In this document: piece after piece, positions 19,905 through 39,535 of the stretch
How the letters are laid out: each line of letters begins with the position of its first letter
Position numbering within the stretch: position 1 is the stretch's first letter
Made by a program: the position numbers and the translations under genes
Virus record (IMG/VR): IMGVR_UViG_3300042914_002334
Coordinates: 32,001-96,000 of that record
Reading direction: 5' to 3' (one strand)
Length of the DNA: 64,000 bases
DNA from: a virus
The notes under the pieces: generated by a model
What the model saw: the letters and a program-made list of their open reading frames with translations, nothing else
Databases searched by the model: none
What the model was told of the DNA's origin: nothing

Positions 19905-20162
19905 AGTTTCTTTGGTTTCGTTCAGTAGCAACAATTGTTCTATCAATTCTGGATATACTTTCTGATAGTAATCATTCATTTTCTCGAAACTGGTTGGCAT
20001 AACAGAGCCTCCTATTACACACTTGACCACTTTGCGCTCTTTGTAATCAAGAATTACATTACAAGTTGTCTCGTCATTTTTCTTTAGTCTCTTGCTAAAC
20101 CCAATCTGTTCGTCGATCTGATTGTTGGGTTTTTTATAGTATGTTACAAGTAAGTATCTCAT
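19890..20162 (-). CDS. Hypothetical protein
   Basis: 90-aa ORF coupled (ATGA) to the clamp loader gene. Confidence 0.65.
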   Translation of the reverse strand: MRYLLVTYYKKPNNQIDEQIGFSKRLKKNDETTCNVILDYKERKVVKCVIGGSVMPTSFEKMNDYYQKVYPELIEQLLLLNETKETKKPA

Positions 20163-21091
20163 TGCGTCAACTCAATAATCGTAGCACTTACGCTTATCTC
20201 TGGAATTCCAACTAAACTTAAATTGGCCAATCCATTTCTAATCGTAATGATGGCGGCATCTTTTTTCTCTTGTGTTTTGCCCCACAAGTTCAAATTGGAA
20301 TACATCCATCGATATAGGTCTTCTACTCGCGTTGGATTCAAACTCAAAAATTGAAGTAGTTGTTCACGACCTTCTAAAACTTTACCAGCCTTGAATGAAT
20401 TAGTTATCTCTACCAACAGTGCGTCTTGATCGTTTACGGTATTCTGCGCGGCAAGCAATACTCCAGTGCTGCTATTTACTTGAAGTAAATTCAAACACTT
20501 TCTTAAGTCTGGGTAAGTTGCTGCGACATAATTGTCAAGAGTATCTAACTCAAACTCGATATTTTCTGTCATTAGAACCGTTGCTGCTCTGGCAGTGAAT
20601 TCGATTCTATCCGCTTTTGTAATGGTAAAAACAGGACAACGAGATTTTAACGCTGGAATAATTTTGTGTTCGTAATTACAAGTCAGAATAAATCTGACAC
20701 TACTGCTGTATACCTCAATATCTCCACGCAACATTGCTTGCCCGTTTGGAGTAAGATAGTCTGCCTCGTCAAGCAATACAATCTTGAACTTACCAAATGG
20801 TAATGTTTGAACAAAACTCAACACCTTGTCTCTGATAACTTCTACGCCGTTTTCTCTACTGGCGTTTATTTCGAGAACATCATAATCGTTCACACCCAAT
20901 TCAGCAATTAGAACTTTTGACAAGGTCGTCTTGCCAGTGCCAGGCTCTCCACTGAGTGTTATGTTTGGAATAGTGCCGTTTTTTATCCAATCTTTTACTT
21001 GCTGTTGAAGTCGTTCATCAACAAATACATAATCATTGATGTTGTTCGGGCGATACTTTTCCACCCACAATTTGTTTTTCATGTTCATCAT
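20159..21091 (-). CDS. Clamp loader large subunit (gp44/RFC-like)
   Basis: LWVEKYRP, GEPGTGKT, EINAS, LDEAD, SRC motifs. Confidence 0.93.
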   Translation of the reverse strand: MMNMKNKLWVEKYRPNNINDYVFVDERLQQQVKDWIKNGTIPNITLSGEPGTGKTTLSKVLIAELGVNDYDVLEINASRENGVEVIRDKVLSFVQTLPFGKFKIVLLDEADYLTPNGQAMLRGDIEVYSSSVRFILTCNYEHKIIPALKSRCPVFTITKADRIEFTARAATVLMTENIEFELDTLDNYVAATYPDLRKCLNLLQVNSSTGVLLAAQNTVNDQDALLVEITNSFKAGKVLEGREQLLQFLSLNPTRVEDLYRWMYSNLNLWGKTQEKKDAAIITIRNGLANLSLVGIPEISVSATIIELTQ

Positions 21092-21378
21092 GAACGAAGC
21101 GCCTGTATAGTAAGAATGTGTGCTATTTTTTGTCCAATATCTTCTTTGTCAGTGATTATATACAATTTCGTGACAGATTCGTCGGTCGTTCTGTTATAAG
21201 TGCTGAAGTGCAATACATAACCACCTTCTGCGTGATGTAGACAGAAGTTAAACGGGTTAGATGAACTAATTACATTCGGTTGTTCGCCTTCATATTCCAA
21301 AATTGGTCTTATTTTATGTTTCTTTGATTTTGTATTCCAATGAAATGAAGAGAATACATTTTTTATTGTGTTAAACAT
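21088..21378 (-). CDS. Hypothetical protein
   Basis: 96-aa ORF coupled to both neighbours. Confidence 0.6.
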   Translation of the reverse strand: MFNTIKNVFSSFHWNTKSKKHKIRPILEYEGEQPNVISSSNPFNFCLHHAEGGYVLHFSTYNRTTDESVTKLYIITDKEDIGQKIAHILTIQALRS

Positions 21379-21737
21379 TATATTACCTTGTCACTGAGTG
21401 TGTCATCAATTACGGGCGTGTCACTAACTAACATGATGTCTTTTACATCAACACGACGAACGGTGTGAATACCAGTGTCGTCCTGAATTTGTATTCCTCT
21501 TGTCCAGCGACCGTGCTCTATCAAAATCCATTGTCCAATTTTTACGTCCCGCTGATCTGGGCCGATAGCATACACTTCTGCCCAACGAGGTCTGATGCCG
21601 CTGTTTTTGGCATCGTCGCTAACCAATACGATTCCAGAACTGGTGGTTCGTTCTTGAAAGTTCATATCTTTTACGATAACTGCATCACGCAGTGGTTTGA
21701 GACTTTTTATTTTGTTTGGTTCGTAACTGTGTTTCAT
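21378..21737 (-). CDS. groES: GroES-like co-chaperonin
   Basis: LKPLRDAVIV, TTSSGIVL mobile loop, VYAIGP, VKIGQ. Confidence 0.85.
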   Translation of the reverse strand: MKHSYEPNKIKSLKPLRDAVIVKDMNFQERTTSSGIVLVSDDAKNSGIRPRWAEVYAIGPDQRDVKIGQWILIEHGRWTRGIQIQDDTGIHTVRRVDVKDIMLVSDTPVIDDTLSDKVI

Positions 21738-22166: not shown

Positions 22167-22673
22167 TTATTTAAGAAAGTCGGAAATAGCCAGGTCAAAG
22201 TAGATACTATTTATACGATGTATTCCGATCAAGTATAAAACATAACTGGCAACACTACTTCCACGGCCTACTCCCCATACGATGTTGTTTTTTCTCATTA
22301 CATCTACCAGATATTTTAGATATTGAAGTAATGGAAATGCGTTTCTGTCGAGATATAGAAGTAGTTCCTTGCCGACTCTGTCACGCTCAACATCAGTAGT
22401 GCATTGATTTAGCAACCATTCTGCGATATCTAAGTTTTTATATTCTTCTGGCATATGCCAATTAGATTGACATCTTTCATCAAATTCTGACTCAGATAAT
22501 TGCTCTGAGTGATATCGTATCAGTTCGGGAATATTGTCAATATTTAATTCTTTAGATATGTTTGGAACGAAATCCATCAAGCACTTTTTTAGTTTAGAGT
22601 CGGAATTGACCATCAATTGGTTGATGATATCAGATTCACTAAGTATAATTTGTCCGTATGCGTCTATCTTCAT
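22167..22673 (-). CDS. DnaE (family C polymerase) fragment, N-terminal part of the palm
   Basis: RVGKEL...NNIVWGVGRGSSVASYVLYLIGIHRINSIYFDL matches the DnaE GPGRGS region. Start set at ATG 22673. Confidence 0.85.
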   Translation of the reverse strand: MKIDAYGQIILSESDIINQLMVNSDSKLKKCLMDFVPNISKELNIDNIPELIRYHSEQLSESEFDERCQSNWHMPEEYKNLDIAEWLLNQCTTDVERDRVGKELLLYLDRNAFPLLQYLKYLVDVMRKNNIVWGVGRGSSVASYVLYLIGIHRINSIYFDLAISDFLK

Positions 22674-22718
22674 AGAGATAGTATATAGAACAGATAACAA
22701 ATATTCAATTGATTTTGG

Positions 22719-22952
22719 TCAATTGATATCTATTTTAGACTTTAAGTTGTCCTGTTTTTTGTTGAACAGTTCGGCTTGTCTCTTGCTGTATTCCTGTTTG
22801 TAAGAATTCAATACCATAATCAATTGATTCATCATGGCTTGATTGTGCATGCGACTTGCAAATGAAACTTTATTGCCTAAATTGGTGATCGTGGTTTGTA
22901 ATTCTTCCAAACTTTTTTCTGAAAGATCGCCTACTAATGGATGTGTAATCAT
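22719..22952 (-). CDS. Hypothetical coiled-coil protein
   Basis: 77-aa ORF in operon position. Confidence 0.6.
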   Translation of the reverse strand: MITHPLVGDLSEKSLEELQTTITNLGNKVSFASRMHNQAMMNQLIMVLNSYKQEYSKRQAELFNKKQDNLKSKIDIN

Positions 22953-22954
22953 AA

Positions 22955-23416
22955 TTAAAACGATATGCTACTAATTTCTATTGTTTGCGGTGATGGCAAT
23001 AAAGACGGTCTGGTAGGCCAGACAACCGACTCTGGAAATGTAGATTGATCAGTAATGTCCAATAATTGCTGTCTGTAATTTTGCAGTTCATTTTTTTGTT
23101 CATCAGTAAAAGATGCCCAACGCATTGGATTCATAACGAGATTATCTAATTCTACCAAATATCCATTTCTTATATTTCTAATGCGAGAGGCTTTTTCTTC
23201 GTTCGTCGGGTCAACAATAGGAATAGGTTCAAATGCCTCTATTTCTCCAAACTCGTTATTTACTATTCTATTGAATATTTCTTTTCCGTGTTCCTCGTTG
23301 TCATATTTATAAGCAACAAAAGGAACTTCTCCAAGTTGATCAAAGTTTACCAAGCAACTAATATATTCACCAGATGCGTCTAAGTATTTGGGATTTTTTA
23401 TCGTTGTATATTTCAT
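22955..23416 (-). CDS. Tail fibre assembly chaperone
   Basis: IRNIRNGYL...YRQQLLDITDQSTFPESVVWPTRP; directly follows the fibre gene. Confidence 0.85.
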   Translation of the reverse strand: MKYTTIKNPKYLDASGEYISCLVNFDQLGEVPFVAYKYDNEEHGKEIFNRIVNNEFGEIEAFEPIPIVDPTNEEKASRIRNIRNGYLVELDNLVMNPMRWASFTDEQKNELQNYRQQLLDITDQSTFPESVVWPTRPSLLPSPQTIEISSISF

Positions 23417-23430
23417 GTCTTATTCTCTAT

Positions 23431-26400
23431 TTAAGCTACTCTAATCGCCAAATATACAATGTATGGCATAATTACAACGCCGGAACTTGCTCCAGCAGAA
23501 ACAACAGTATTATTTACAAAATCAACCACTATGTCGGTGGTTCCTACCGCACCACTCATTATTTTCCATGTTCCGGATAGTTGATGTGTTGACTTTATAA
23601 ATGGTGAAGTAGTATTTTTTGGGTATACCGCAAACTGATTCTCACCAAGGGTAAGATTTAGCGTTGGGGATTCAAATAACACGCCGAAAGAAGTTATCGT
23701 GCCTCCGCGTGTCCATCCATTGGCAGCAGTAACGAGAGTATTAGTGGCTACTTGTTGTGATCCAACTATCATTGAGTAAGCACCTACTGACGTCGATTCA
23801 ATCTGAGATACTGGGGTGTATCCTCCGCTAACTGAACCGACATCATTATCAGTTAAAATTCTTGTCCAAGGTGACCAAGTAGTCTTGTCTTCTGTATCGT
23901 CATTAGTTCTAAAATACACACCAGTTGGAGTTCCACCATTGTCATCCCAATTGAATGCCAATTGCGAAGAGTATACTCGATTTAGACCATCAGACTGACC
24001 ACTTATTGTGATTCCAGAGAAATAATTTCCCGGGAAGTCAGAAGAAGAATAAGCAACAAATCCTCTTATATTGTATTCTGGGAAAAAACTCGGCGTTGGA
24101 CTCGGAGATGCCAATTGAAACAAATCAAATCCAGTAGTCGGACGCGCTGATATCCAATTTACTCCATTCCAAGCAATAATATGTCCTGGTTGTTTGTTTG
24201 TAGTGCTTACATTTAGTAATTCATCCAACGTGTCTCTTTGTCTGATAATATAATCGGTCTGACTTAATATGCTTGTCTGATTAGTTACCATTTTAGATGC
24301 CAACACTCTTTCAAACGAGTTAGGCAACGCGATGTCACTTACTCTTATACCAACTGAATTTCTTGATTCTGGATTCTTAACCAGATAAATGTAATTTGTA
24401 GCATTTGGATTTAACTGAACTGTTTGTGTTGGAACACTGGTGTAATATCCACCTATAAACAGCGGATAATCAACGGTGTATGCAACTAAACCGGTTGTGC
24501 TTTCTGTGCTCAAATAAATCTGATGTCTGGGCGCGGTAGCATTGAACCATTGATCCTCGGTCAATTCTGCGCCCACACCTCTTATATCTTTAGACGAAAT
24601 AAAAACCATTCCAACATAGGCTATTATAGAAGATGCACGATAGTATCCAAGCGTAGTGCTATAACCGAAAGTGCTTCCTGGCCATTGGAACACCGATTTG
24701 TAACCACCTTCTCCCGTTGATTGCGAAGAGAATCGTGTTACGTCGCCAGTGACTACCGCAGCAGAATTTACGTCATAAGATGCCCAGTAGAAAGTTCTTC
24801 CGCCAATAGTAGAAATTGAGAAATTAAATAGTATTCGTCCGTTATTACTCCATACTGGATGTCCAGAATCTAACGCAAGAAATATTTGATTTTCCTGATC
24901 GTTTCTGTTTTGTTTTCCAGCATCTATTTCTGTTTGTAATATATTTGCAGTAGTCAGTGACCAAGCAGAGTTTTGATATCTTGCCATATACACCAGACCA
25001 CTTGAATCTCTTACCGTTGCATATAGTATTGGAGTTGATGTATTTCCATTCCACAAAGTAATACCTACTACGGTTACTCCAGTTTTTCCATCAAGCGTTG
25101 CAGAAACCGCAGGAAACTGAACACCGGTGTCAGTATAAGTTCTTACGTTATTACTTGATGCAGTTATCGTGTATATGTTAAATCCAGGTCTTGACCAGTA
25201 ATATATTGGCGTTGTCCCAGACACAGTAATACCAAATGCGCCCGGAGTCTGATTATCTTTAATAAATTGTGGTGCACCATTAAATGAGTCTACTGTAGAG
25301 GTGGTCGGATCAAGTTTAAAGGTATCATTTGTTTGACCCAGCGCAACTGAACTAAATTCTGTGGTGCTGAATGACGCTTGAATCACTTTCTGACCATATC
25401 TTGTTGATTCACCAGCAAAAAGAATATTGTTGTCGATTATATGTGCAAACTGACTATATACACCCTTAGACCACATTGATCCGTCGGGAATGTATTCTAC
25501 GGCCTTTGTATATTTAGATTCGTTGTTGTTACCAAATGTCTTATATACATATGCATTGCTATAAGACAATCTGTAGATCGTTGCTGCAACAATTGTTGTC
25601 CCGGTGCTGCGAACAGAGTAGTATATATTGCCTTCGTATTCGTCAGTGACTAATGTTGAAACAATACCAGCGCCACCTATAGTGTCACTCATTCCACCAG
25701 TATCAGTGTTCCAAGTGCTGTCTTTTAGTAAGTTGTAGCGGAATGTTCCAGATTTTTGCGGTATCAAAGAAGAAACTGTTCCTGTGCCATTTTCTATCCA
25801 TGTTTTTGGAATAGCCCATGACAAATCCAATGCAACCGAGGCCCCGACATTGTTTCCGCTGTTGTTTTGATAAACATACCATATAGGGAATTGCTGGTGA
25901 AATGTTTGCGTAAATGGATTCCAAGTAAATGAAATATATCCATATGGAGCATAACTTAGTAAAGGGACACTCGATGGCGCTACTCTTCCCTGTCCTGTGG
26001 TATCGGAAGTGTTGAGCATTGCTGCACTATCATACAACACTTGCGTTCTTTGTTGAACTAATAGATTATTGTAGACCGTCAACACGACTTGAGAACTGTC
26101 CGATGCCACCGTAGAGGCTATTATTCTGTCGCCGCTTGAGGTTGGAACTAACGCAAAGTTTGTTCTTCCATTTGCATATTGAGTAACATCGTTTGCAAAA
26201 GTCCAGTCTGCTGGATTAGAAGAACCGTATGTTTTTGCAATTACAATTCGAGTTTGATTCTGTGGATAAGCAATAGTTGCAACTCTTAATGTGACAAAAT
26301 ATGTTCCAAGATTAAGTATGTCGCTGACTTTTTCGGTGGAAGACAAAAAGTTCGGTCTGACCAAGTTATTATCGTATACGAATGGTTTTGTAATGTCATA

Positions 26401-27516
26401 TCTATACGCTCTGGCGACTGATCTGTTTCCTGTAGGTGTATCTACTGAAAAATACAATACCTGTTTTGATTCGCGATCAATAAAGGTAAATGCCATAGAA
26501 GACCACGCGCCCTGAGAGAACGGGAAACTTCCATATATAGGAACAATATTGTCTTTTAGATATCCGGCATACGGAGAGAAGTTCAAATAGTCGCTTGTAT
26601 CTACATACTCTTTAGTTGCGCCGTCTGTTATTCCGTATCCTGCTATTGTTGTTGGCTTGCTTGATATGTCAGCGAAAGGAATAGTAGCAGATGCGGTAAA
26701 GGGCGCGGTTCCGGCACCTTTAACATATCCAGTAAGTGTTGATGCTCCAGTTCCGCCGTTTGTTACCGCTAATGTTCCACCAACAGTAAAAGTTCCGGAT
26801 GCTATTATTGGACCTCCGCTAAATGTCAGTCCGGTTGTACCCGGGTTTATTTGAATATAGGTAACGGTTCCGTTGTTTATCGTGCTTAGATTTGAATTTC
26901 CATCTATTTGTAGTCCATTACCAACTTTTATTCCACCCAATACTGTAGCAGATGCAACAGGGAACTCTCCATATTCCAAGTCAGTTCCTGCAACATTTAC
27001 TCTAAGATATGTTCCGGATGGACCAACTGAACTCTTTCCAGTTCCTCCATTGGCAATTGGCAATACTCCACTTACATCAGTTTCTAACGCAACTTTAGCA
27101 AGCGTGATGTTTGCTCCGTCACTACGAAGAACGGTATTTGGAGTTAGCGTGTTTGCTGCTAACGCATTTATTGCATCTTGTCTTGTTGATTTTCCAGTTC
27201 CACCCTTAGATATTGATAGAGGCGCAGATGATTCTCCAACAGAAAGAGTTCCAAACTCGTCAATTTCAAGTCCTGAACCGACTCTTATTACTCCAACGGC
27301 TGTCGTTGTCGCTATTGGAACTAATTCCCCAGAAATACTCTCGCTTGTAATAATTTCTGTGTTTCCGGGGGTTAGATTATTCTCAGTAGGTTCATTTCCT
27401 ATGTATAATTTTTTCTCGTCATACGCCCAACCCAATTCTCCAGAATCAAGTTGAGGGACTCCATCTGATGCGCTTCCTTTTCTGTTGATAATTTTACTTA
27501 TCTGAACTACTGCCAT
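23431..27516 (-). CDS. Long tail fibre / receptor-binding protein
   Basis: MAVVQISKI..PQLDSGELGWAYDEKKLYIGN anchor, GGTG modules, large beta-rich head. GGAG SD supports ATG 27516. Confidence 0.85.
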   Translation of the reverse strand: MAVVQISKIINRKGSASDGVPQLDSGELGWAYDEKKLYIGNEPTENNLTPGNTEIITSESISGELVPIATTTAVGVIRVGSGLEIDEFGTLSVGESSAPLSISKGGTGKSTRQDAINALAANTLTPNTVLRSDGANITLAKVALETDVSGVLPIANGGTGKSSVGPSGTYLRVNVAGTDLEYGEFPVASATVLGGIKVGNGLQIDGNSNLSTINNGTVTYIQINPGTTGLTFSGGPIIASGTFTVGGTLAVTNGGTGASTLTGYVKGAGTAPFTASATIPFADISSKPTTIAGYGITDGATKEYVDTSDYLNFSPYAGYLKDNIVPIYGSFPFSQGAWSSMAFTFIDRESKQVLYFSVDTPTGNRSVARAYRYDITKPFVYDNNLVRPNFLSSTEKVSDILNLGTYFVTLRVATIAYPQNQTRIVIAKTYGSSNPADWTFANDVTQYANGRTNFALVPTSSGDRIIASTVASDSSQVVLTVYNNLLVQQRTQVLYDSAAMLNTSDTTGQGRVAPSSVPLLSYAPYGYISFTWNPFTQTFHQQFPIWYVYQNNSGNNVGASVALDLSWAIPKTWIENGTGTVSSLIPQKSGTFRYNLLKDSTWNTDTGGMSDTIGGAGIVSTLVTDEYEGNIYYSVRSTGTTIVAATIYRLSYSNAYVYKTFGNNNESKYTKAVEYIPDGSMWSKGVYSQFAHIIDNNILFAGESTRYGQKVIQASFSTTEFSSVALGQTNDTFKLDPTTSTVDSFNGAPQFIKDNQTPGAFGITVSGTTPIYYWSRPGFNIYTITASSNNVRTYTDTGVQFPAVSATLDGKTGVTVVGITLWNGNTSTPILYATVRDSSGLVYMARYQNSAWSLTTANILQTEIDAGKQNRNDQENQIFLALDSGHPVWSNNGRILFNFSISTIGGRTFYWASYDVNSAAVVTGDVTRFSSQSTGEGGYKSVFQWPGSTFGYSTTLGYYRASSIIAYVGMVFISSKDIRGVGAELTEDQWFNATAPRHQIYLSTESTTGLVAYTVDYPLFIGGYYTSVPTQTVQLNPNATNYIYLVKNPESRNSVGIRVSDIALPNSFERVLASKMVTNQTSILSQTDYIIRQRDTLDELLNVSTTNKQPGHIIAWNGVNWISARPTTGFDLFQLASPSPTPSFFPEYNIRGFVAYSSSDFPGNYFSGITISGQSDGLNRVYSSQLAFNWDDNGGTPTGVYFRTNDDTEDKTTWSPWTRILTDNDVGSVSGGYTPVSQIESTSVGAYSMIVGSQQVATNTLVTAANGWTRGGTITSFGVLFESPTLNLTLGENQFAVYPKNTTSPFIKSTHQLSGTWKIMSGAVGTTDIVVDFVNNTVVSAGASSGVVIMPYIVYLAIRVA

Positions 27517-27615
27517 AAATTGCTCCAAATCTATTTAGATTGAACTGTTATCGCATCTACTATTTTAGATAGTAGATGAACTATTATGTATTTATTCAGG
27601 CAGGAATAATTATCT

Positions 27616-28332
27616 CTATGCGTGTTTTAGATAGTATTGCTCTACTCTGCGCCACCACATATCACGATACTTAGAATATTCTGACCCTTCGAGAATAAAT
27701 TCTTGATACTCTGGGTCTTTGACAATTATTCCTCTATCATTTACCTCAGGCTTCACGCACATCATTACAACACCGCGATTTATGTTTGTATTATGTATCT
27801 CATTGTGAGCCTCGGCATAAGCACACAATTGAATAAAGTAGTCATCAATCCATTCTCGCTTTTTTGGCTTGTTTGTCTGCTTAAAGTCAATGATGCTTTC
27901 TTGATTTGTGTGAATACCTGCACAATCAGTTGTTCCAGCATATATCTTAGGGAAATATAAAGGAACTTCTATGCCCCAAAACTCATTGCAGTTTATCAAT
28001 CCGCTATTGATAACTACTCCTGCCATGTGCCAACTCGGTTGATGAAATGGATTTTTAGGCTTTTCATCAATCTGGCCGTTGCGTATGTAGGTTTCTAAGA
28101 AAGTGTGCATTTTGGTTCCACGATTAGCCGCTTCGGTTGTAATCTGCTGTGCCTTTTCTACCCCAACTCTCTTTTTCCATTCGTTTAGAACTTTAACTTT
28201 TTCTGGAGGTTTAGTAGCATCAAGTATGGTAGTGACGCTTGGAAGATATTCACCGTTGGGATCAACATATCTTCTTTTGCCATCTATCTCTTTTTTGTTT
28301 AGTGGTTTGTAATTGAATTTTGGATTATACAT
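27616..28332 (-). CDS. PD-(D/E)XK (Cas4-like) exonuclease
   Basis: LPSVTTIL, RGTKMH, YAGTTDC, IIDFKQ, QLCAYA. Confidence 0.85.
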   Translation of the reverse strand: MYNPKFNYKPLNKKEIDGKRRYVDPNGEYLPSVTTILDATKPPEKVKVLNEWKKRVGVEKAQQITTEAANRGTKMHTFLETYIRNGQIDEKPKNPFHQPSWHMAGVVINSGLINCNEFWGIEVPLYFPKIYAGTTDCAGIHTNQESIIDFKQTNKPKKREWIDDYFIQLCAYAEAHNEIHNTNINRGVVMMCVKPEVNDRGIIVKDPEYQEFILEGSEYSKYRDMWWRRVEQYYLKHA

Positions 28333-28381
28333 ATAAAAACAGCATAACAAATTGTTATGCTGCGTGTCAAGTAATATGGTA

Positions 28382-28711
28382 TTATTTTTTTAGAGTGCTC
28401 TTTGCCATCTTATCAACTAAGTCGGCTTGTTTCTCACCATCTGGTTCTGATTCGACATCATCTGCGCCCTTAAAAACTATATTGTCTCCATCTACATTCG
28501 CAACAATATTGCTTAGTGGGGGATTCTTTATCATTTTAAGAAACAATTCTTTGTCTACATTTAGACCGCGCTCATTTAGAGCGTTGAGAACAACATCCAA
28601 GTTGATTCTGTTTTTGTAACCTGTATCTTCGGAACGATTTTGATATTGACCTACAACTCCCGTGAGAATGGTAGCGTCAACTGATTCAGGCTCAAATTCG
28701 TATAACTTCAT
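28382..28711 (-). CDS. Hypothetical protein, probably head-associated
   Basis: MKLYEF start; coupled to the upstream gene. Confidence 0.6.
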   Translation of the reverse strand: MKLYEFEPESVDATILTGVVGQYQNRSEDTGYKNRINLDVVLNALNERGLNVDKELFLKMIKNPPLSNIVANVDGDNIVFKGADDVESEPDGEKQADLVDKMAKSTLKK

Positions 28712-29427
28712 TATCTGCGCTCGCGTCCGAGTCCGCTCATACGCTGCTTTGGTTCTTCTTCTGGTTCTTCTGGCAACTCTGGCATTTCTCCGCCCATTTC
28801 TGGTTCTTCCATGCCACCCATGTCGTCCATGCCTTCTGGGCCACCGATGTCACCCATGTCGCCCATTTCTCCAGTAGGCATTCCGCCATCACCAGTTACC
28901 GTATCCAACGCACCATTTAGTCCGTCTTTAGCGGTTTTTAGAGCCTCTTGCAAAGAAGACAATGCTTCTCCCGCAGCACTATTAAATTGCTCGGCTTCGT
29001 TTGCTCCAAATTCGCCAGAATTTTTCATACTTTCTACTACAGCATTCAATTCTTCTACATTCATCTTACTGACTTGTTCTATCATTTTTTGAATGTCGTC
29101 GATCATACTCTTTGCAGCAAGTATTACTTGTGATTTTTGAACTTCTTCGTTTTCTACAACGATTCGAGTTTGTGAGCGTAATTCTTGCAGATGCCCAGAA
29201 AGTGCTTGTTCCATCATTAGTAATTTCATATACGCAGGATTTTTGTGACTGCGATAATTACCAGTTGATGTTTTTGATTCTATAATCAAACCTCTAACTT
29301 TTGTTAGCATGCTTGAAGTTTTTTTGATGTTCATGTTGCTCAAAGATAAGTCGTAATCAAAAGATTCTTTTAGCACTTTAGATGCCAACTTGCTCTTTTT
29401 GTTTTCTTGAAGATCGGTTAAGTTCAT
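28711..29427 (-). CDS. Helical prohead-core-like protein
   Basis: LQE, LKE and VVE sites; acidic Met/Gly tail. Confidence 0.55.
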   Translation of the reverse strand: MNLTDLQENKKSKLASKVLKESFDYDLSLSNMNIKKTSSMLTKVRGLIIESKTSTGNYRSHKNPAYMKLLMMEQALSGHLQELRSQTRIVVENEEVQKSQVILAAKSMIDDIQKMIEQVSKMNVEELNAVVESMKNSGEFGANEAEQFNSAAGEALSSLQEALKTAKDGLNGALDTVTGDGGMPTGEMGDMGDIGGPEGMDDMGGMEEPEMGGEMPELPEEPEEEPKQRMSGLGRERR

Positions 29428-29869
29428 TTTGAAATCCTCGTTCTTGGCATATTTTTGCCATTGTAATGTATTTATCTAATTCTCTCTGAAATGTATTTTG
29501 TCTTAAAATGTCTTGATCATGCTTGGTTGTATATATCATATACTCTTCAAGAGTGCCCTTTCTCATTTTGCTGTGAATCATTCTGTCTACGTTTATACTT
29601 TCCAATTTATGATCCAACTCTAATATTCTTCCGGCTTCATAAAACTTGTTATGTTTGTCCAGTATTGCCCATGCCGTGGCGTTTTTTACTCGATTGAACA
29701 AAAAAGTTTTTTCATCTCCATATCTGAATACTACCACATTATCTTTTTGCTTTGTCAAAACATACTTTTCAAACAACACATATGTGTTATTATTTTCTGG
29801 ATAAATCACACAATTTATCAAAGACGAATTTAGTAGCGTCTTAAAACTGGAAATAAGATTGTCATTCAT
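29378..29869 (-). CDS. Hypothetical protein
   Basis: ORF coupled to neighbours; ATG 29869 chosen as start. Confidence 0.55.
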   Translation of the reverse strand: MNDNLISSFKTLLNSSLINCVIYPENNNTYVLFEKYVLTKQKDNVVVFRYGDEKTFLFNRVKNATAWAILDKHNKFYEAGRILELDHKLESINVDRMIHSKMRKGTLEEYMIYTTKHDQDILRQNTFQRELDKYITMAKICQERGFQNELNRSSRKQKEQVGI

Positions 29870-30308
29870 TGTTGTCAACTTCAAAGTGTATATTTTTATA
29901 TTCTGCTGTGGTATTTAGACGAGATATTAAACTCTTACATTCTTCCAAGTTTGTTATCATTGGAACATCATTGCAGTCTAAAATCAAGTTTCCGAGTTCA
30001 TTTACTCCATCGTCAAATACTCCAGACTGATAAACCGTAAACGAAAAACTCCACATACTTTGATTGTCATAAATGTCTTTGTATTCTGACCCCCATTTCG
30101 TGTCATTCGCTGATATCTTTTGTTTTTTAGAATCAGTAATATTTTCTGGCTGACTTCTCAAACTTATTATTTGTATAACTGTTTCGTAATTGACTTGTTG
30201 ATTTCTTTGCTTGACATACTCTGCCGTGCTTTCCATAGTGTTTGGCTTTCTTCTGCCAATATTGGTTTTTGTTATGTCAAAAAGAGTGTAGCATCTTATT
30301 TTAATCAT
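29862..30308 (-). CDS. Hypothetical late protein
   Basis: MIKIRCYTLFDIT; ATG lies 4 nt after TAAATA. Confidence 0.65.
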   Translation of the reverse strand: MIKIRCYTLFDITKTNIGRRKPNTMESTAEYVKQRNQQVNYETVIQIISLRSQPENITDSKKQKISANDTKWGSEYKDIYDNQSMWSFSFTVYQSGVFDDGVNELGNLILDCNDVPMITNLEECKSLISRLNTTAEYKNIHFEVDNNE

Positions 30309-30327
30309 AGAGTATTTACTGGATAAT

Positions 30328-30357
30328 AAAAAACCCAGGAATAAATCCTGGGTTTTT
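30328..30357 (-). terminator. Intrinsic terminator
   Basis: aaaaacccagga...tcctgggttttt stem. Confidence 0.8.
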
Positions 30358-30375
30358 GTTTTCTTCAAACAGTAA

Positions 30376-30765
30376 TTATGCTAAGCCGCCCAATGTGACT
30401 GTTGCACCAGACAAGTCATATGTGTTGACTGTTCCAAGTGCGCGAACTGCTGTTTGCAATGCAGCGGCAGCATCGCCACCTGTTGGATACATAGCAACAC
30501 GATATGTGCCATCGTTGTTGAACTGATACATATGTAGTGTGCTCATTTGTGTCATTACACGCAATACAGCCTCGACTGCGCCGCCAGGACCGAATTGTGA
30601 CTGAACGCCAGTACCACCCAAATCGCCAACATAGAAGTCCAACTTTGGACCCTGTGGTTGAATTGGAATACCAGCGGAACCAGTTGTTGTTCCGTTTACA
30701 TATGCGCCTACATCATATACGGCTACGCCACTTGCATCACCGTTAGTTCTTGTAAAACCTGCCAT
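30376..30765 (-). CDS. Probable abundant virion (capsid decoration-like) protein
   Basis: Own late promoter, TAAGGAG SD and terminator; small Gly/Ala/Thr-rich protein. Confidence 0.55.
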   Translation of the reverse strand: MAGFTRTNGDASGVAVYDVGAYVNGTTTGSAGIPIQPQGPKLDFYVGDLGGTGVQSQFGPGGAVEAVLRVMTQMSTLHMYQFNNDGTYRVAMYPTGGDAAAALQTAVRALGTVNTYDLSGATVTLGGLA

Positions 30766-30844
30766 TTTTAAATCTCCTTAATGTTGTGAGGTTAGTTTCC
30801 TCTACAATTATTTATCACTTTGTCAAAAAAACAAGCAATTAGGA

Positions 30845-31624
30845 TTATATTTGGTGTTCTATTCCGTAATACTTATAGTATCCCGCGTTCAGATATTTGA
30901 TAGTATCAATATCAGAAACTTGAAGTGGCTTAGTGGCGTCGGTAACATCAATCCACTTATCCTCAGTGAAGTTGAACTCGAATGTTCTATTTTGAGTTAT
31001 CAGTGTCGGTTTGTCTGGAATCGGTTTGCCTACTCCAGAACCAGTTGTTGGAATAATGCTTCCGTTGGTTGTCTTGTATGCATTCCAGGATGCCTCTGTT
31101 GGCTCAGAGTTAAGTGCCTTTGCAGATGGAGGGGCCGGCGCTGGCTCAGGACTAGTTGCTCGTTCTTCATTGTATATTGCCCAATATTGATTAGCCAACA
31201 TGTCAGATAATTGACGAGTTAGTCTTTTAGTTGTTCTGTATTGACTACCAAATCGTGTTATAACAGAGTCTAATTCAGTTTCTTGTTCTGGACTGAGTGT
31301 TGCAACTACATTTGCTTCCTTTTTTAGCATATTCAGAATAAATGATTTTACTGCAAACTCTACCGTTCCAGCAGTAAACGCTTCTTTAAGAATTTTTGCT
31401 TCTAATATTGACTCAAAGTGATGATAGTCGGTGAATTCTGTTAGATTTGGTTTTGATCTTAAATATCTATCCAACTCAGCGAAGAACTTGTCATAAAACA
31501 TTTTCTCTGCCATTTCAGAATCTCTTCTTTGAAATGCCAATCGTTGCTGCATGCCACCTAATACGCCGCTGCGTTTAATGGCATCAACAAAACTGCCTTC
31601 ATTGAGAAATTCTTTGCTCTTCAT
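30845..31624 (-). CDS. Probable head-internal protein
   Basis: MKSKEFLNEG leader; ILEAKILKEA sites. Confidence 0.55.
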   Translation of the reverse strand: MKSKEFLNEGSFVDAIKRSGVLGGMQQRLAFQRRDSEMAEKMFYDKFFAELDRYLRSKPNLTEFTDYHHFESILEAKILKEAFTAGTVEFAVKSFILNMLKKEANVVATLSPEQETELDSVITRFGSQYRTTKRLTRQLSDMLANQYWAIYNEERATSPEPAPAPPSAKALNSEPTEASWNAYKTTNGSIIPTTGSGVGKPIPDKPTLITQNRTFEFNFTEDKWIDVTDATKPLQVSDIDTIKYLNAGYYKYYGIEHQI

Positions 31625-31867
31625 TTACTTCTCGTTTCGTTTTAGACTTCTTGTGAATTTTCCTTGATCGCGATTTTTTATAGCAATCAATAGTTTCTTT
31701 TCTAAGATGGCAGCCTGCTCCGAACCAAAGTTTCTTTCAATTACTTCCATTAAATGAATGGCACTTGAAATAACATTGATCGCACGATTTTCAATAATGT
31801 GCTTGGTGTCAACATTTCTGCTAATGGATTCTAATTCTTCCAGTAGACTGCGCGTTTTGTTCTTCAT
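31625..31867 (-). CDS. Hypothetical late protein
   Basis: ATG lies 5 nt after GATAAATA. Confidence 0.65.
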   Translation of the reverse strand: MKNKTRSLLEELESISRNVDTKHIIENRAINVISSAIHLMEVIERNFGSEQAAILEKKLLIAIKNRDQGKFTRSLKRNEK

Positions 31868-31899
31868 AATAATATTTATCGATTTCAGGCTAAATCAGA

Positions 31900-33324
31900 T
31901 TATTGCTTTTTTAGATTGTTCAACATTGCTTTTAATTTTGAACCCTGAGCACTGGCAACGACAGTCTTTTCTGATTCTGTCTGCGTTATTTCTCCTGTGT
32001 TTGAATCAACTTTTACGGTCGGACTTACTGTGCTACTTGCCTTTATCTTATTCAATAATGTGCTTGCACTATTACTTGTTGCAGTATAGCCAGTGCTGTC
32101 CCCATCATCAAAAATTCTAAGAGTTTCAACATTGAATGATAAGTCTACCTTTTGTCCAACACCACTACTACTACGAGTTTTCATTAGTTGTATCTGATAT
32201 TGTCCTCGTTCTCGCATGTGTCTACTTGTAAAAATACCAAACACATTATCTGCGGTGTTGATCTTACTGATACCGCCAGAAATATGACTATGATCGAATT
32301 CTATTTCTTCAACTGCACTACGATTCAACTGACTGGCAGTAACCAATAACACATTTAGTTCCTTGGCAAGATTTCGTATTTCTTCACTTACATATTTGTC
32401 TTTAATAAACAAGTCACTTGGACTTACTTTTGCACTAACTGGCATCAAAAGATCCAAATAATCAATACATACAAAGTCAATTTTAACTCCTGTTTCTATA
32501 CTAAGCGTCTTGATATAGGCTCTAATGTCATTCACATTGCTCTGAGCCGGCATATACTTGATGAAGAACTTGCCGGATTTTTTGGCAATCATCTTGACTT
32601 TTAGTTCAACATCATCGATGTTTTTGAACACCTCTTTAGTAGCGATGTCGGTGGTCATACTATCAATACGCCAAGCACATAATTCTTCGCTAAGTTCAAG
32701 CGTGATGTATACGCCGTTTAATCCAGCGGTTGCCCAATTCACGCTTAGATTTTGCATGAACAAACTTTTGCCGCTACCACTACCGCCAGCAAATATCTGT
32801 AGTTCGCCACGATTGAATCCACCGTATAACTTATTATCGATACACGGCCATCCAGTGCTGATTTGCCCGTTGTTATTTCTAATTTTGTTTAATCTACCTC
32901 GTGGATCACTAAAATAGTCAGTGCCCATATCTTTAGTCAGTGATATCTGAACTGCATCTTTGATTAGTTTTTCAACTGGATCATAATTTCCCTTTTCGAG
33001 CAAGTCTGCACTCTTTAGAATTGCTCGTTCTAATTCCTGTCTTCTGATGAATTTTTCAATCTCATCCAGAAACCAATCAACATCGCTTTGTCGTATGTCC
33101 TCAATTAATTCTAATTTTACTCCAGTAGTGGCCGAAATCTGATTGACATCGGGAACGCTAACATATTTCTCTGCGAATTCTTTGATAAATTTTACCGCAT
33201 CTCTCAGAGATTTGTCAAAGTTCTCGTGATTCAGAATATTACTGATTCTGGTATATAGTTGTGGCTCACTTATCATCATTCGCAAGAATAGCTCTTGCAT
33301 TTCTAAGTTGTATTCTGTATTCAT
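31900..33324 (-). CDS. Replicative helicase (gp41/DnaB-like)
   Basis: GGSGSGKS, ITLEL, IDYLDL, TASQLNR, KTR motifs. Confidence 0.92.
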   Translation of the reverse strand: MNTEYNLEMQELFLRMMISEPQLYTRISNILNHENFDKSLRDAVKFIKEFAEKYVSVPDVNQISATTGVKLELIEDIRQSDVDWFLDEIEKFIRRQELERAILKSADLLEKGNYDPVEKLIKDAVQISLTKDMGTDYFSDPRGRLNKIRNNNGQISTGWPCIDNKLYGGFNRGELQIFAGGSGSGKSLFMQNLSVNWATAGLNGVYITLELSEELCAWRIDSMTTDIATKEVFKNIDDVELKVKMIAKKSGKFFIKYMPAQSNVNDIRAYIKTLSIETGVKIDFVCIDYLDLLMPVSAKVSPSDLFIKDKYVSEEIRNLAKELNVLLVTASQLNRSAVEEIEFDHSHISGGISKINTADNVFGIFTSRHMRERGQYQIQLMKTRSSSGVGQKVDLSFNVETLRIFDDGDSTGYTATSNSASTLLNKIKASSTVSPTVKVDSNTGEITQTESEKTVVASAQGSKLKAMLNNLKKQ

Positions 33325-34283
33325 TTAAATCTCTTTTTTGCCATTTCTACTTTTATTTTACTACTTGTAGCACAAGAAAATATGCTTAGCAAGGTTGATA
33401 GTTTACCGTATCTTTTTACCGCATCATTTACATCTTTAACGTCAGAATGCCATTCTGGTATGCTTACCTTATATCCTAATTCTAATGCTCGGTCGCATAT
33501 CGATAAGCCTGGTTTATCCTGATCAGGAACAACGATGATTGTTCTTCGTAATCTATTTAATAATTCAACTTGACCATCACTGATAGTACTTCCCATATAT
33601 GCACAACCATCTATGCTAAGTGCGTCAAATTGTCCCTCGACGAGAATACAAGTTGTCCATTCTTTTTTCTGTGCATCTATATTGAATATGTATCCGGGAG
33701 TTTGATCCGATAAGTATTTTGGTTTTCTTCCGTCAATGAATCTACAAGTATGCCCAACCATTTCTCTATCGTAGTAATATGGAATTATGATTCCAGGTCT
33801 ACTTGAATCCTCGTCAATATAAAAAGGATATTCTTTGTAATCAATCCCTCTTACTTCGCGTAGATATTTTATATGCTCAAGATGTTCTGGATCGCGCTCG
33901 TCTAATTTTACGCAAGTATCAGAAAGAGATTTTTTGGGAAAGTTTATTACTATTGCTTTCGACTGTTTAGATTTTAGCTCTATCAAACTGCCCTTACTCA
34001 AACTTTCAAGACTTAGTTTATTGATTTCTGATTCATCGACACCACACCAATGTAGCAACAATTTAGTGTGCTTTGTCAGTGACTTTCCGAGAGTAAATCC
34101 TGCCTTAAAGTGGCAATTAAAACAATTGTAAATCCAATTTCTCTCATCATCGAATACTATTCCTCCTCTTCCTCTTGTGTCGGCATTATGCCCACGATGC
34201 AGACAACACGGGGCGTTAAAACTATACCATCCGGATGGAGTTTTACGTTTTTTTCCAGGAATAATAGATAATATATCCAACAT
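33321..34283 (-). CDS. DNA primase (gp61-like)
   Basis: Zn-binding CC.H...CFNC; TOPRIM VEGQFDA and PDQD; KDVND. Confidence 0.88.
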   Translation of the reverse strand: MLDILSIIPGKKRKTPSGWYSFNAPCCLHRGHNADTRGRGGIVFDDERNWIYNCFNCHFKAGFTLGKSLTKHTKLLLHWCGVDESEINKLSLESLSKGSLIELKSKQSKAIVINFPKKSLSDTCVKLDERDPEHLEHIKYLREVRGIDYKEYPFYIDEDSSRPGIIIPYYYDREMVGHTCRFIDGRKPKYLSDQTPGYIFNIDAQKKEWTTCILVEGQFDALSIDGCAYMGSTISDGQVELLNRLRRTIIVVPDQDKPGLSICDRALELGYKVSIPEWHSDVKDVNDAVKRYGKLSTLLSIFSCATSSKIKVEMAKKRFK

Positions 34284-34329
34284 AGATCATAGTCTATAAC
34301 ATTACAAGACTAAAATCAATCTTTATCGT

Positions 34330-35127
34330 TTATCTTACTAAGATTTTGGTAAGATCACCAGATAATGATGAGCCTGTTCCAGAAGATGGGCCTGTTCCAG
34401 AATTTACTATCTTCAATCTGATAAACGGATGATATCCATCTATATTGAAGTAATGATTTCCGCTATCGTTTACATACACCGATTCTGTCCCAATATTATA
34501 TGTCTGAGAAAAATTGGATAGTGTGCTTCCCTGAAATTGTATAGTTCCAGTGAATTGATTTAGTTGCAGTTGAAAGGTATATAGATTTTGTTGCTTAGTG
34601 TAAAAACTACTGCTGTAATGTGTTATTGGTGTTCCAACTACTGGAACTGGATGCGATGGTATGGTCAGTAAATACGATCCAACAAACATCGGCAAAACAC
34701 TATTAACAATTCGTATAACTCCACGAGCGCCACAATTGGCGTCAACGAACACTGGATAGTCGAACTCATCTACTGGAATTTCCAAACTATAGTAGCATAA
34801 TTGAGTTTTTATTTTATCCATCTCCTCGGATGTCACTCTGAGTCCGGCAATTCCAGTTAGCGGAAATATCTCGACTAACGATTTCTGTAGCAGAATTTCT
34901 TTACCACTCGCATCAATGATTCTTGCTGTTATTTCTTTGTTAGAAATATTGACTGGTTTTTGTTCTTGATTCAAGAATGCAAACTCAATCAAGTTGTCGA
35001 TACCACGATTTAATGTTAGTTCTTTGGCGTACACTTTGTTATACCTTATTTTTCCTCGGGCAGCCACATCCAATAAAACCACATGCGTTCTTTGATTGTA
35101 TAAATATACTTGAGATTGGGCTGTCAC
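34330..35127 (-). CDS. Virion structural protein (Ig-like/BppU-like N-domain)
   Basis: RGIDNLIEFAFLNQEQKPVNIS pattern; late promoter and GAGG SD before GTG. Confidence 0.55.
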   Translation of the reverse strand: MTAQSQVYLYNQRTHVVLLDVAARGKIRYNKVYAKELTLNRGIDNLIEFAFLNQEQKPVNISNKEITARIIDASGKEILLQKSLVEIFPLTGIAGLRVTSEEMDKIKTQLCYYSLEIPVDEFDYPVFVDANCGARGVIRIVNSVLPMFVGSYLLTIPSHPVPVVGTPITHYSSSFYTKQQNLYTFQLQLNQFTGTIQFQGSTLSNFSQTYNIGTESVYVNDSGNHYFNIDGYHPFIRLKIVNSGTGPSSGTGSSLSGDLTKILVR

Positions 35128-35149
35128 TTTGTTGTCCTCTCAATTATTT

Positions 35150-35530
35150 ATGTCTAATGATTTTTTTCAAAAACTCACTGTTTCTCATCCATTCATAACT
35201 GTGTTGTCATACGCAGGACAAGAATACATAGGAGTGATTCAGAATCGTGATGATTTCATCACCACCTTCTATGATTACGGAACAATAGTAGATCAAAATC
35301 TAAAAAAGACCTTCTTATCACTCGGTGATCAATGGTGGTGGGAAAGCAACAGATTAATTCCCATAAACATTTTTTTGCGTGACGATTGGAGCGTTTTTAG
35401 ACCGTATCTCAGAACATTCAATAACAAAGGTCTTTCTATACTGCACGGGCCAGCAACTTGTATCAGTGAATTGGCAAAGAAAAGAGTAAAGCGTAAAAGT
35501 ATTACGCTGGTCAAAAGAATTAGCCACTAA
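35150..35530 (+). CDS. Hypothetical late protein
   Basis: ATG 35150; TATAAATA at 35099-35106. Confidence 0.65.
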   Translation: MSNDFFQKLTVSHPFITVLSYAGQEYIGVIQNRDDFITTFYDYGTIVDQNLKKTFLSLGDQWWWESNRLIPINIFLRDDWSVFRPYLRTFNNKGLSILHGPATCISELAKKRVKRKSITLVKRISH

Positions 35531-36083
35531 GCAAATTCATATGCACTGCTACTAAGTGTGCATAACTTATGGCATGTGCCTTTTTGAAGAAATACCCATC
35601 GCCATCTTTTACCCATATCTTTTTTTCTAATTCATTCCACGGTATACCAATAAGATGTTTCTTTCCTGGTCTAATAACACTAAGAAACATAGCCATTTTA
35701 AGAATGCTATCTATCTCACCTGACATGCTCAATATAGTATCGTAGTGATTTCCAATGTGAATAATCTTTTCTACAAACTCACGATTCTTTAACAAAGACC
35801 AATCTGGTTCTTTCATCAGTTCTAACAAATGTGCTTCGCTGGTAACTTGCTTATAAACAAACACATTTAGTAAGTCAAACTTTATATATCCTCGGTTTTC
35901 TGCCTCTACATAATCAATGGCAGCAAGATCGGTCAGTGGATCATATGGAATGTCAGTCACATATATGCCAGTATTGTGCTTCTTAACCGTTTCATCTCTA
36001 ATAGAGGCAGTCACATAGTCTATGTGTTCAAGTATGAGATTTCGGTCGGCAAAGTCTATGTCAATATCAGAAGAAAATTTCAT
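35520..36083 (-). CDS. DnaE (family C polymerase) fragment, minimal catalytic palm/fingers
   Basis: SDIDIDF, KHNTGIYV, GYIKFDLL, IRPG and GYFFKKAHAISYA occur in DnaE order. Confidence 0.88.
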   Translation of the reverse strand: MKFSSDIDIDFADRNLILEHIDYVTASIRDETVKKHNTGIYVTDIPYDPLTDLAAIDYVEAENRGYIKFDLLNVFVYKQVTSEAHLLELMKEPDWSLLKNREFVEKIIHIGNHYDTILSMSGEIDSILKMAMFLSVIRPGKKHLIGIPWNELEKKIWVKDGDGYFFKKAHAISYAHLVAVHMNLLSG

Positions 36084-36802
36084 TTTAATACCTGTTTAAT
36101 AGTTTCGGAAACTTCATTGAACAATTGTCTGTCTCTTGCAAACTTCAAGTTCCATCTTTCTGGATTTATGTATTCCCATATTACTGATCGTTGATCTTCG
36201 TTTATAGTATCCAGAAAATTAAGTCCAGATTCAGACAAATACAGAATCCACGGACTTATCTGACCAGAACTTATCAAACTGCATAACTTATTCTTGCTGT
36301 AGTAAAGCAGTACATCAGACAACTTTAGATGTTCTTTTTCAGAAATGTCAAGCATAGTTTCAATGCTTCTTCTAACCGCATCAAATGGGTCTTCTGTTCT
36401 CAAGTATTGTATGAGATATTTGGTATACTGCTGATCGCGTGCCCAGTTGTCTATCGAGACGTTATTACTCAACAAGTGATTCAAATACTCAGTAGAGTTT
36501 ACGACCTTTACATTTACACAATACAATCCAAATTTTACGAATGCAGTATAGTATGCACTCGTCATGAAAGTTCTGTAATCCTTTTTTTTCTTTCCAGGCT
36601 GACATCTTGAATAGAAAGTAAGCCAGGCGTTAAATGCGATTCTATTCTGCGGCTTTTCTTTATCCTGCCAACGCAACTTTTGCTCACACACATGCTTTAT
36701 CAGTGTGCTTTCTCTAACAAAAGTTCGGTTGCAATGATCGCAGGTATTTAAGTCAGTTTTAGTATCCGTTTTCTGAATCATAGGTTTTAATTTCTTCTTC
36801 AC
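36080..36802 (-). CDS. Hypothetical protein with N-terminal Zn finger (start uncertain)
   Basis: CDHCNRTF..ESTLIKHVC. Confidence 0.6.
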   Translation of the reverse strand: MKKKLKPMIQKTDTKTDLNTCDHCNRTFVRESTLIKHVCEQKLRWQDKEKPQNRIAFNAWLTFYSRCQPGKKKKDYRTFMTSAYYTAFVKFGLYCVNVKVVNSTEYLNHLLSNNVSIDNWARDQQYTKYLIQYLRTEDPFDAVRRSIETMLDISEKEHLKLSDVLLYYSKNKLCSLISSGQISPWILYLSESGLNFLDTINEDQRSVIWEYINPERWNLKFARDRQLFNEVSETIKQVLK

Positions 36803-37525: not shown

Positions 37526-38029
37526 TTAAAAAGCCTGACTATAATCTACAACTTCACAATTCTTGCTAACTTCTTTGACAAAGTAAATGCATCTTGGCTT
37601 TGAAGTTTCTTCAATTGGAACGCACAGAAATTGTCCATTTCTCAATCTCGGGGCATACCAAGTAACATCATGATACACATCCACTATCTCAATGTCTAAG
37701 AAATTGGGTCTAAAACTACTAAGTGGGTTAAACTCAAATACTTTAAAGCCACGATCATTGATGCTGGTTAGTGGGACTATTTCCAAATCTCCAAAGTCTG
37801 GTTCACCAATTAGTATTTGCCAGTCAAGTGGCATTTTTATTATCTGATCTGCCACTCTCAATACAAGAGCCGGACTATTAAAACTTTCCAAGAATATAAG
37901 TGGTATGTAATGATAGTCCACTGATTGTGGGTTGCTGTTGTCCATTATTGCAAATCTTAAATCGTCTACCTCTTCTGGTAAATTTTCCAGATTGTAAGAA
38001 CTGTTATCTTCTAATGTTAGTATTTTCAT
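37526..38029 (-). CDS. Hypothetical beta-rich protein
   Basis: 167-aa ORF coupled (ATGA) to uvsW. Confidence 0.7.
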   Translation of the reverse strand: MKILTLEDNSSYNLENLPEEVDDLRFAIMDNSNPQSVDYHYIPLIFLESFNSPALVLRVADQIIKMPLDWQILIGEPDFGDLEIVPLTSINDRGFKVFEFNPLSSFRPNFLDIEIVDVYHDVTWYAPRLRNGQFLCVPIEETSKPRCIYFVKEVSKNCEVVDYSQAF

Positions 38030-39483: not shown

Positions 39484-39535
39484 CAAGACAGTATATACAA
39501 TTCAATGCTGAATTGTCAAACATCTTATAGCCAAA

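Follow-up and report, generated by a model that had tools for sequence, protein, structure and literature searches.

A predicted minimal split DNA polymerase III alpha on two separate genes of an uncultured virus

Described systems and the present locus

A 'minimal split DNA polymerase III alpha' was defined computationally in the group 2.2 jumbo phages by Iyer, Anantharaman, Krishnan, Burroughs and Aravind (2021, Viruses 13:63, PMC7824862). It consists of an N-terminal half that binds the nucleoside triphosphate (NTP) and a C-terminal half that binds Mg and template, encoded by distant genes, with no other PolIII domains and with a family B polymerase alongside. Iyer et al. suggested that it cooperates in making one of the strands or in repairing DNA, and saw in it a model for the PolIII module in its ancestral form (PMC7824862). 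A truncated, 172 amino acid (aa) alpha-like protein had been noted still earlier in the paper on phage CBB. GenBank records label both halves DNA polymerase or 'DnaE-like DNA polymerase III alpha', and families PHROG 11127 and PHROG 11778 are annotated in RaK2, GAP32, CBB (CBB_328), PA5oct, Paride, Atu_ph07 and Phosso. Here we analyse two open reading frames (ORFs) of the same kind in a window of 64,000 nucleotides, positions 32,001 to 96,000 of the IMG/VR virus record IMGVR_UViG_3300042914_002334. The whole contig is 141 kb long, has a GC content of ~39% and is estimated to be ~40% complete. Nothing essential separates this locus from that of Iyer et al.: the present one is an uncultured fragment in which 12.8 kb lie between the two genes, its proteins share 39-50% identity with those of the phages just listed, and a family B polymerase is seen here in complete relatives. 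The split mini-polymerase is already known: the system had been defined computationally and published, and the present analysis has come upon it independently; an initial annotation of the window, made from sequence alone, rightly cautioned that similar fragments might already be annotated. New here are a residue-level map of the break and the deletions, a co-fold of the composite site, selection estimates, synteny with primosome and clamp-loader genes, the scale of the family in metagenomes and a fused form of 375 aa.

Naturally split dnaE genes whose products are ligated by an intein occur in cyanobacteria. They share with the phage locus a dnaE on two distant genes but differ in the site of the split, and their halves carry intein fragments and become joined, whereas the phage halves have no intein. 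Bacillus subtilis DnaE extends primers before PolC. By analogy, the phage enzyme would likewise be a DnaE-type polymerase lacking intrinsic proofreading, placed beside another main replicase and near a DnaG/DnaB-type primosome; the Bacillus enzyme itself is one full-length chain that binds the clamp, and the analogy is drawn only from gene neighbourhood. The structural reference points are Escherichia coli PolIII alpha (DnaE1, 1160 aa; PDB 2hnh and 5fkw) and PolC (3f2b), with which the phage halves share a collinear, superposable Pol-beta-like palm.

Homology and anatomy of the two halves

The two genes, with the evidence that assigns each, are as follows.

22167-22673, minus strand: N-half of the predicted split minimal PolIII alpha, 168 aa counted from its ATG (PF07733, PHROG 11127, hhalign, VIA-align)
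35520-36083, minus strand: C-half of the predicted split minimal PolIII alpha, 187 aa (PHROG 11778, AlphaFold2 model, VIA-align, hhalign)

Both ORFs are intact and their homology is not due to chance, so that the coordinates and motifs given for them by the initial annotation are borne out; the strand, which it left unstated, is minus for both. The C-half gene is transcribed first, that is, it lies upstream on the coding strand. A TTG start would lengthen the N-half frame to 22700, but homologues begin at the ATG (M1 is nearly invariant). We consider, with a probability of roughly 85%, that the two genes are the halves of a minimal split DNA polymerase III alpha that assemble non-covalently around a composite active site to give an active accessory polymerase.

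In the case of the N-half, PF07733 (DNA_pol3_alpha) matches with an E-value of 3.1e-8 (34 bits, against a gathering cut-off of 23.9), as does PHROG 11127, labelled 'DNA polymerase' (E 3.6e-40), and hhalign places residues 126-168 of the family alignment on E. coli alpha 351-393 without a gap. PHROG 11778, also labelled 'DNA polymerase', matches the C-half (E 1.9e-56), for which a Pfam search returned no family. AlphaFold2 models were built from alignments of 40 and 37 rows, with a predicted local distance difference test (pLDDT) score of 85.6 and 88.5, the latter for the C-half. Superposed with VIA-align, N-half residues 69-168 fit E. coli alpha 278-393 with Z-scores of 8.9-9.6 and a root-mean-square deviation (rmsd) of 2.5-3.0 over 93-96 residues. 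Fold comparison with the N-half yields 17 chains at Z of at least 2, each of which scores at least 5; the best reaches 10.3 over the same residues 69-168, and every listed entry is a C-family polymerase. C-half residues 1-187 superpose on PolC 968-1292 (Z 9.3, rmsd 3.1, 181 residues aligned) and on E. coli alpha 399-777 (Z 8.5). In its ranking, 14 C-family chains come first (Z 8.1-9.3 across 181-183 of the 187 residues), and the next, unrelated chain falls to Z 3.2. The profile comparison with DnaE that the initial annotation proposed thus supports the N-half through hhalign and PF07733, and fold and motifs support the C-half.

In the E. coli dnaE translation, the motifs GRGS, DFDVD, KFD, RPG and KSHS begin at residues 361, 401, 553, 639 and 758. 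The C-half, which starts with MKFSSDIDIDF and contains KHNTG, KFDLL, RPG and FKKAHAISYA, carries all but the first, with these equivalences.

C-half D6, D8 and D10: E. coli alpha D401, D403 and D405 (catalytic strand DxDxDF)
C-half K68 and D70: E. coli alpha K553 and D555 (KxD)
C-half R138-P-G: E. coli alpha R639-P-G
C-half F166, K168, H170 and Y174: E. coli alpha F756, K758, H760 and Y764 (H760 being the steric gate)

N-half residues 69-168 make up the beginning of the palm and include the triphosphate-binding loop WGVGRGSS, which is invariant. Features shared with bacterial DnaE1 are therefore D401, D403, D405 and D555, the GRGS loop, K553, RPG and the K758-S-H760 helix. The C-terminal stretch of the N-half, GVGRGSS...DFLK, closes with an FLK that is equivalent to alpha F391-N393, its last residue corresponding to N393 of FERFLNPER, and the DxDxDF of the C-half begins at residue 6, preceded by five residues only. 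The break accordingly sits in the loop at alpha 394-400, which has seven residues in E. coli and five in the phage. Profile, fold and motif mapping agree with the initial annotation that the genes abut at one point in the palm and between them keep all catalytic aspartates. Its further statement that the arginines of ERFLNPER are absent holds in part: the position of R390 is acidic (Asp or Glu), but conserved Lys/Arg positions flank the break, one closing the N-half and the other being the second residue of the C-half.

The precedent of cyanobacterial DnaE raises the question of whether the two halves are ligated after translation by a split intein. Neither ORF matched a Hint or intein family of Pfam at E ≤0.1, in line with the initial annotation, which saw no intein ends. 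DnaE homology runs directly up to both protein ends at the break, and with the N-half ending at N393 and the C-half starting five residues before DxDxDF there is no room for intein sequence at either end; these ends are, moreover, conserved across the family. We regard ligation as having a negligible chance of being correct.

Relative to DnaE1, the phage enzyme is split in two and heavily reduced, with a summed length of 355 aa. The distance from DxDxD to KxD is 58 residues (D10 to K68) against 148 in E. coli (D405 to K553), which implies that the thumb is gone; between RPG and the KxH helix the count is 26 against 115, which implies the loss of ~90 finger residues. The C-half stops at about alpha 777, and C-terminal tails in homologues are variable or absent, so that the finger tip, the (HhH)2 region, the beta-clamp motif, the OB domain and the tau-binding region are all missing. 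The PHP domain (alpha 1-270) is absent from both halves, the N-half alignment starting only at alpha 278. Profile, fold and motif mapping thus bear out the absence of PHP, thumb, HhH, clamp-binding and OB regions that had been proposed for the pair. What has been added is a family-specific extension, N-half residues 1-68, that has no DnaE counterpart in the structural matches and in which M1, D4, G7, D65 and Q69 are conserved to the point of being nearly invariant. This extension may substitute for structural support that usually comes from the PHP domain or thumb.

Assembly, conservation and distribution of the pair

When N-half and C-half are co-folded, the interface score ipSAE is 0.91 in all three runs, and the best control reaches 0.00; of 80 solved complexes 58 attain the mark applied to this score, as do 2 of 110 mismatched pairs. 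Contacts agree to at least 99% between runs, and the pLDDT of the partner is at least 91. N-half residues 133-134, in the GRGS loop, lie against C-half residues 9-11, in the Asp strand, and it is this packing that makes the predicted active site a composite one. The N-half extension (residues 1-68) also touches the C-half. The non-covalent heterodimer put forward by the initial annotation is thereby supported computationally, both by the contrast in score with the controls and by the natural fusion described below. The halves would join non-covalently into one module with a Pol-beta-like palm and reduced fingers, to which the N-half would bring the GRGS triphosphate-binding loop and the C-half the three metal-binding aspartates, the KxD lysine, the RPG finger motif and the steric-gate His. 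Since the parts of the active site are divided between them, neither half should be able to act alone.

In an exhaustive search with phmmer, 390 representatives fell at E ≤1e-3. Among the 150 of them that were listed, a single protein is a fusion of the two halves.

L163:1066-2193, flanked on either side by other genes on a 2415-bp ENA metagenome contig: fused form P0275, 375 aa

Residues 15-181 of P0275 correspond to the N-half (hhalign probability 99.6%) and residues 190-372 to the C-half, with a 10-residue linker and with the motifs intact. PF07733 (E 4.8e-16) and PHROG 405, the family of full-length phage DnaE (E 6.1e-15), both span the junction. In a midpoint-rooted tree lacking an outgroup, P0275 nests among stand-alone C-halves with SH-aLRT support of 82-93; this position suggests a secondary re-fusion, although the tree does not decide the matter. 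A word-indexed search found no longer form among 953 candidates. Likewise, no further fusion was found in IMG/VR, none in the phage collection that covers at least 80% of the fused query, and none of the mini form in JGI metagenomes, where only ordinary long DnaE-type genes align across the junction. P0275 would be the smallest core of a C-family polymerase on a single chain. Were the mini-DnaE a dedicated primer extender, this fused form would be the smallest such single-chain DNA polymerase known and would offer a way into enzymology and structural work. A differently split DnaE occurs at L174:2366-6382 (OKRZ01000398.1, a metagenome contig of 32.7 kb), where a 382-aa PHP ORF (PF02811, E 8.5e-30) immediately precedes a 933-aa ORF that has PF07733, a finger domain and HHH_6 but no PHP.

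Among phage records searched with tblastn, the C-half is found in 96 and the N-half in 93, with matching genus counts and at 38-50% identity. All of these records are jumbo phages of this clade, namely the Escherichia 121Q-like phages, Klebsiella RaK2, Cronobacter GAP32, Pectobacterium CBB, Pseudomonas PA5oct and Paride, Agrobacterium Atu_ph07 and Sinorhizobium Phosso. The fused query, in turn, matches 96 phage records at 186 places and never contiguously, which implies that both halves are present in at least 90 of the 96, always as separate genes; this answers the check on co-occurrence suggested at the outset. The spacing of the halves in cultured relatives is 34-224 kb, as against 12.8 kb in the window's contig. 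Two uncultured relatives that are 100% complete (352 and 385 kb) also possess both halves, 43-61 kb apart. In one further record, IMGVR_UViG_3300032288_004815 (117,666 bp; L129 and L130), two copies of the N-half gene lie ~72 kb apart, which could reflect a repeat, a concatemer or an assembly artefact.

Conservation within the family is concentrated on the predicted active site. In 37 homologues of the C-half, D6, D8, D10, K68, D70, R138, P139, H170 and Y174 are invariant, as is F166, and the same is true of W133, G134, G136, R137, G138, S139 and S140 in homologues of the N-half; catalytic and substrate-facing residues are unchanged down to ~40% identity. D401, D403 and D555 are the absolutely conserved catalytic aspartates of the C family, and D405 is a signature of the DnaE type that is replaced by Asn in PolC (Timinskas et al., PMC3919608). 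With its equivalent, D10, invariant, the active-site neighbourhood is of the DnaE rather than the PolC type. H760, which does not vary in PolIII alpha, is regarded as the presumptive steric gate that keeps ribonucleotides out (Vaisman et al., PMC8485763). Retention of all steric-gate and catalytic residues argues for a polymerase specific for deoxynucleoside triphosphates (dNTPs). For the C-half, median dN/dS (the ratio of non-synonymous to synonymous substitution rates) comes to 0.10, and for the N-half to 0.17, by pairwise Nei-Gojobori estimates on 81 sequences per half, values that are rough, as many pairs are near dS saturation (median dS 1.2-1.3). Both halves are thus under purifying selection, and the neutral evolution named beforehand as a possible outcome is not seen. 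Metagenome clusters at 90% identity and of the same length number at least 7960 for the C-half and at least 7999 for the N-half.

These data bear directly on whether the ORFs are functionless, decaying pieces of a full-length phage dnaE broken by insertions. Full-length and differently split phage DnaE genes do exist, such as the PHP ORF plus 933-aa core of L174. Against decay, the two lengths, ~168 and ~190 aa, are found again and again, across thousands of clusters and no fewer than 90 genomes of cultured phages, the protein ends at the break are conserved, selection is as given above, and the complete relatives have no other DnaE domains; conservation effectively refutes this reading. A non-catalytic remnant serving as a replisome adaptor or scaffold would be compatible with the heavy reduction, with the full family B replicase of the relatives and with an activity that is, for this pair, only predicted. 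It is difficult to reconcile with three catalytic aspartates, a GRGS loop and a steric-gate His that stay invariant down to ~40% identity, or with strong purifying selection, since a scaffold would not need such conservation, and we think it very improbable.

Pol-beta-fold palms serve many non-polymerase transferases. The heterodimer could, by the same token, be a nucleotidyltransferase built on the palm only, which adds untemplated tails, modifies DNA ends or makes a nucleotide signal, rather than a templated polymerase. The thumb, HhH, clamp-binding and OB elements that grip duplex DNA in DnaE are all missing from it, and the deletion of ~90 finger residues between the RPG and KxH motifs points the same way. 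The finger motifs that face the dNTP and its sugar (RPG, K-[AS]-H with the steric-gate His, and Y174) are, on the other hand, invariant; the genes occur in conserved replisome neighbourhoods, and all fold matches are replicative C-family polymerases. A transferase is in our estimation unlikely, if less so than a scaffold. A template-independent or NTP-using role appears, from the residues kept, less likely because the steric-gate His is invariant.

Genomic setting and proposed role

Each of the two complete relatives that carry both halves has a family B polymerase (PF00136), of 914 and 993 aa. PHP (PF02811) was found neither in the window's own contig nor in these relatives, although it is present in all 14 control genomes. 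The relatives also have no extra PolIII finger domain, the sole PF17657 signal being sub-threshold and inside the C-half gene of one of them. Neither PHP nor a further finger domain that might help to reconstitute an ordinary replicase is thus found elsewhere in the two complete genomes, and the earlier statement that the pair is not a replicase fits the family B polymerase in both.

The genes that surround the two halves are largely those of a replisome.

36080-36802, minus strand: zinc-finger, helicase-loader-like ORF, 240 aa (PHROG 11058, E 5.9e-58; PHROG 269 'DNA helicase loader', E 9.2e-5; weak zf-C2H2/C2HC)
33321-34283, minus strand: DnaG-type (Toprim) primase, downstream of the C-half (Toprim_2, E 2.4e-6; PHROG 47, E 3.1e-39)
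31900-33324, minus strand: DnaB-like replicative helicase (DnaB_C, E 2.2e-21; PHROG 19, E 4.8e-72)
38026-39486, minus strand: UvsW-like helicase, at the head of the conserved C-half block (ResIII, Helicase_C, UvsW_N; PHROG 16, E 1.6e-78)
20159-21091, minus strand: gp44/RFC-like clamp-loader ATPase, downstream of the N-half by three small genes (PHROG 168, E 3.1e-72; Pfam AAA, DNA_pol3_delta2, Gp44_lid)

The C-half block runs in the order UvsW-like helicase, small ORFs, zinc-finger ORF, C-half, an ORF on the opposite strand, another ORF, DnaG-type primase and DnaB. The TGA stop of the zinc-finger ORF overlaps the ATG of the C-half as ATGA, an arrangement that indicates probable translational coupling of the two. 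In the other block, the N-half is followed by two or three small genes, one of them GroES-like here, and then by the gp44-like clamp loader. Both blocks are syntenic in Pseudomonas phage Paride at ~46-49% identity, and CBB_328 and CBB_332 of phage CBB show the arrangement of N-half and clamp loader.

The heterodimer would work beside the family B replicase and not in its place. Without a thumb, HhH region, clamp-binding motif or PHP domain, it should be of low processivity and unable to proofread, and we infer an active heterodimer that is dNTP-specific and template-dependent. The role that we prefer, with low confidence and by analogy, is a short extension of primers at the primosome followed by hand-off to the clamp-bound family B enzyme. 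It is suggested by the conservation of the C-half within a block of UvsW, helicase-loader-like, DnaG-primase and DnaB genes; gap filling or repair is about equally plausible, and help on the lagging strand is a further candidate. In a more specific version, the mini-DnaE would be a dedicated 'Pol-alpha-like' extender of a hybrid replisome, recruited at the DnaG/DnaB-type primosome, the genes of which lie close to its C-half; its two-chain active site would put a short length of DNA on RNA primers before the clamp-bound family B polymerase took over. This version is speculative, and we give it a low probability.

Several points weigh against an active accessory polymerase. Evidence for homology of the C-half from sequence only is weak: a HMMER profile search of PDB sequences with the C-half alignment gave nothing at E ≤1, so that homology had to be drawn from fold and motifs, and the top Foldseek E-value is 6.5e-3. 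The hhalign match of the C-half to E. coli alpha covers 15 columns only, with a probability of 19.7%; it places residues 162-176 on alpha 752-766, the FNKSHSAAYA helix, and is weak, yet consistent with the range aligned by VIA-align. The high co-fold score may in part be the model's memory of solved single-chain PolIII alpha, in which case it would report likeness and not binding. An enzyme devoid of thumb, HhH and clamp-binding parts may be unable to hold primer-template DNA unaided. PF00136 is unmatched in the window's 141-kb contig, and with this contig ~40% complete, accessory status is taken from the relatives; the primer-extension role is argued from gene neighbourhood alone. A literature search returned no biochemical or genetic study of the split mini-polymerase, and the main text of the PA5oct omics paper makes no statement on the two genes.

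Other genes of the window were recorded in passing. Between the N-half and the clamp loader, 21378-21737 (minus strand) encodes a GroES/Cpn10-like co-chaperonin (Cpn10, E 2.4e-7; PHROG 931 'head morphogenesis'). On the other side of the N-half, a 1365-aa ORF with no Pfam or PHROG match (23431-27528, minus strand) is followed by a tail-fibre assembly chaperone (22955-23416, minus strand; PF16778, E 2.1e-11), and the two resemble an inserted fibre cassette that separates the replication genes from the N-half. A 244-aa exonuclease is encoded at 27616-28350 (minus strand; PHROG 298, E 1.8e-52; weaker PHROG 69 and 1706, exonuclease and Cas4-like; no Pfam match). It was considered as a proofreading partner and dropped, no DnaQ signal being seen. 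Farther away, 12012-14291 (minus strand) encodes a protein of 759 aa with two AAA+ modules (PHROG 4871 'ATP-dependent protease', E 6.5e-234), a ClpB/Lon-like chaperone or protease. The product of 48903-50909 (minus strand; 668 aa) contains DUF6267 (E 6.1e-24) and shows at its C-terminal end a weak signal resembling cytidylyltransferases, and its gene adjoins those of a gp32-like single-stranded DNA-binding protein (47663-48856) and a UvsX-like recombinase (46164-47222).

At ~355 aa in two chains, the pair is far smaller than any other predicted core of a C-family polymerase, and it marks the minimum of palm and fingers that evolution has kept. It is very abundant in metagenomes, with at least ~8000 clusters at 90% identity for each half. 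Its activity and role being predictions, it is a good experimental target. For the phages that carry it, the pair would mean that one replisome mixes a bacterial-type polymerase module with a family B replicase of the archaeo-eukaryotic type.

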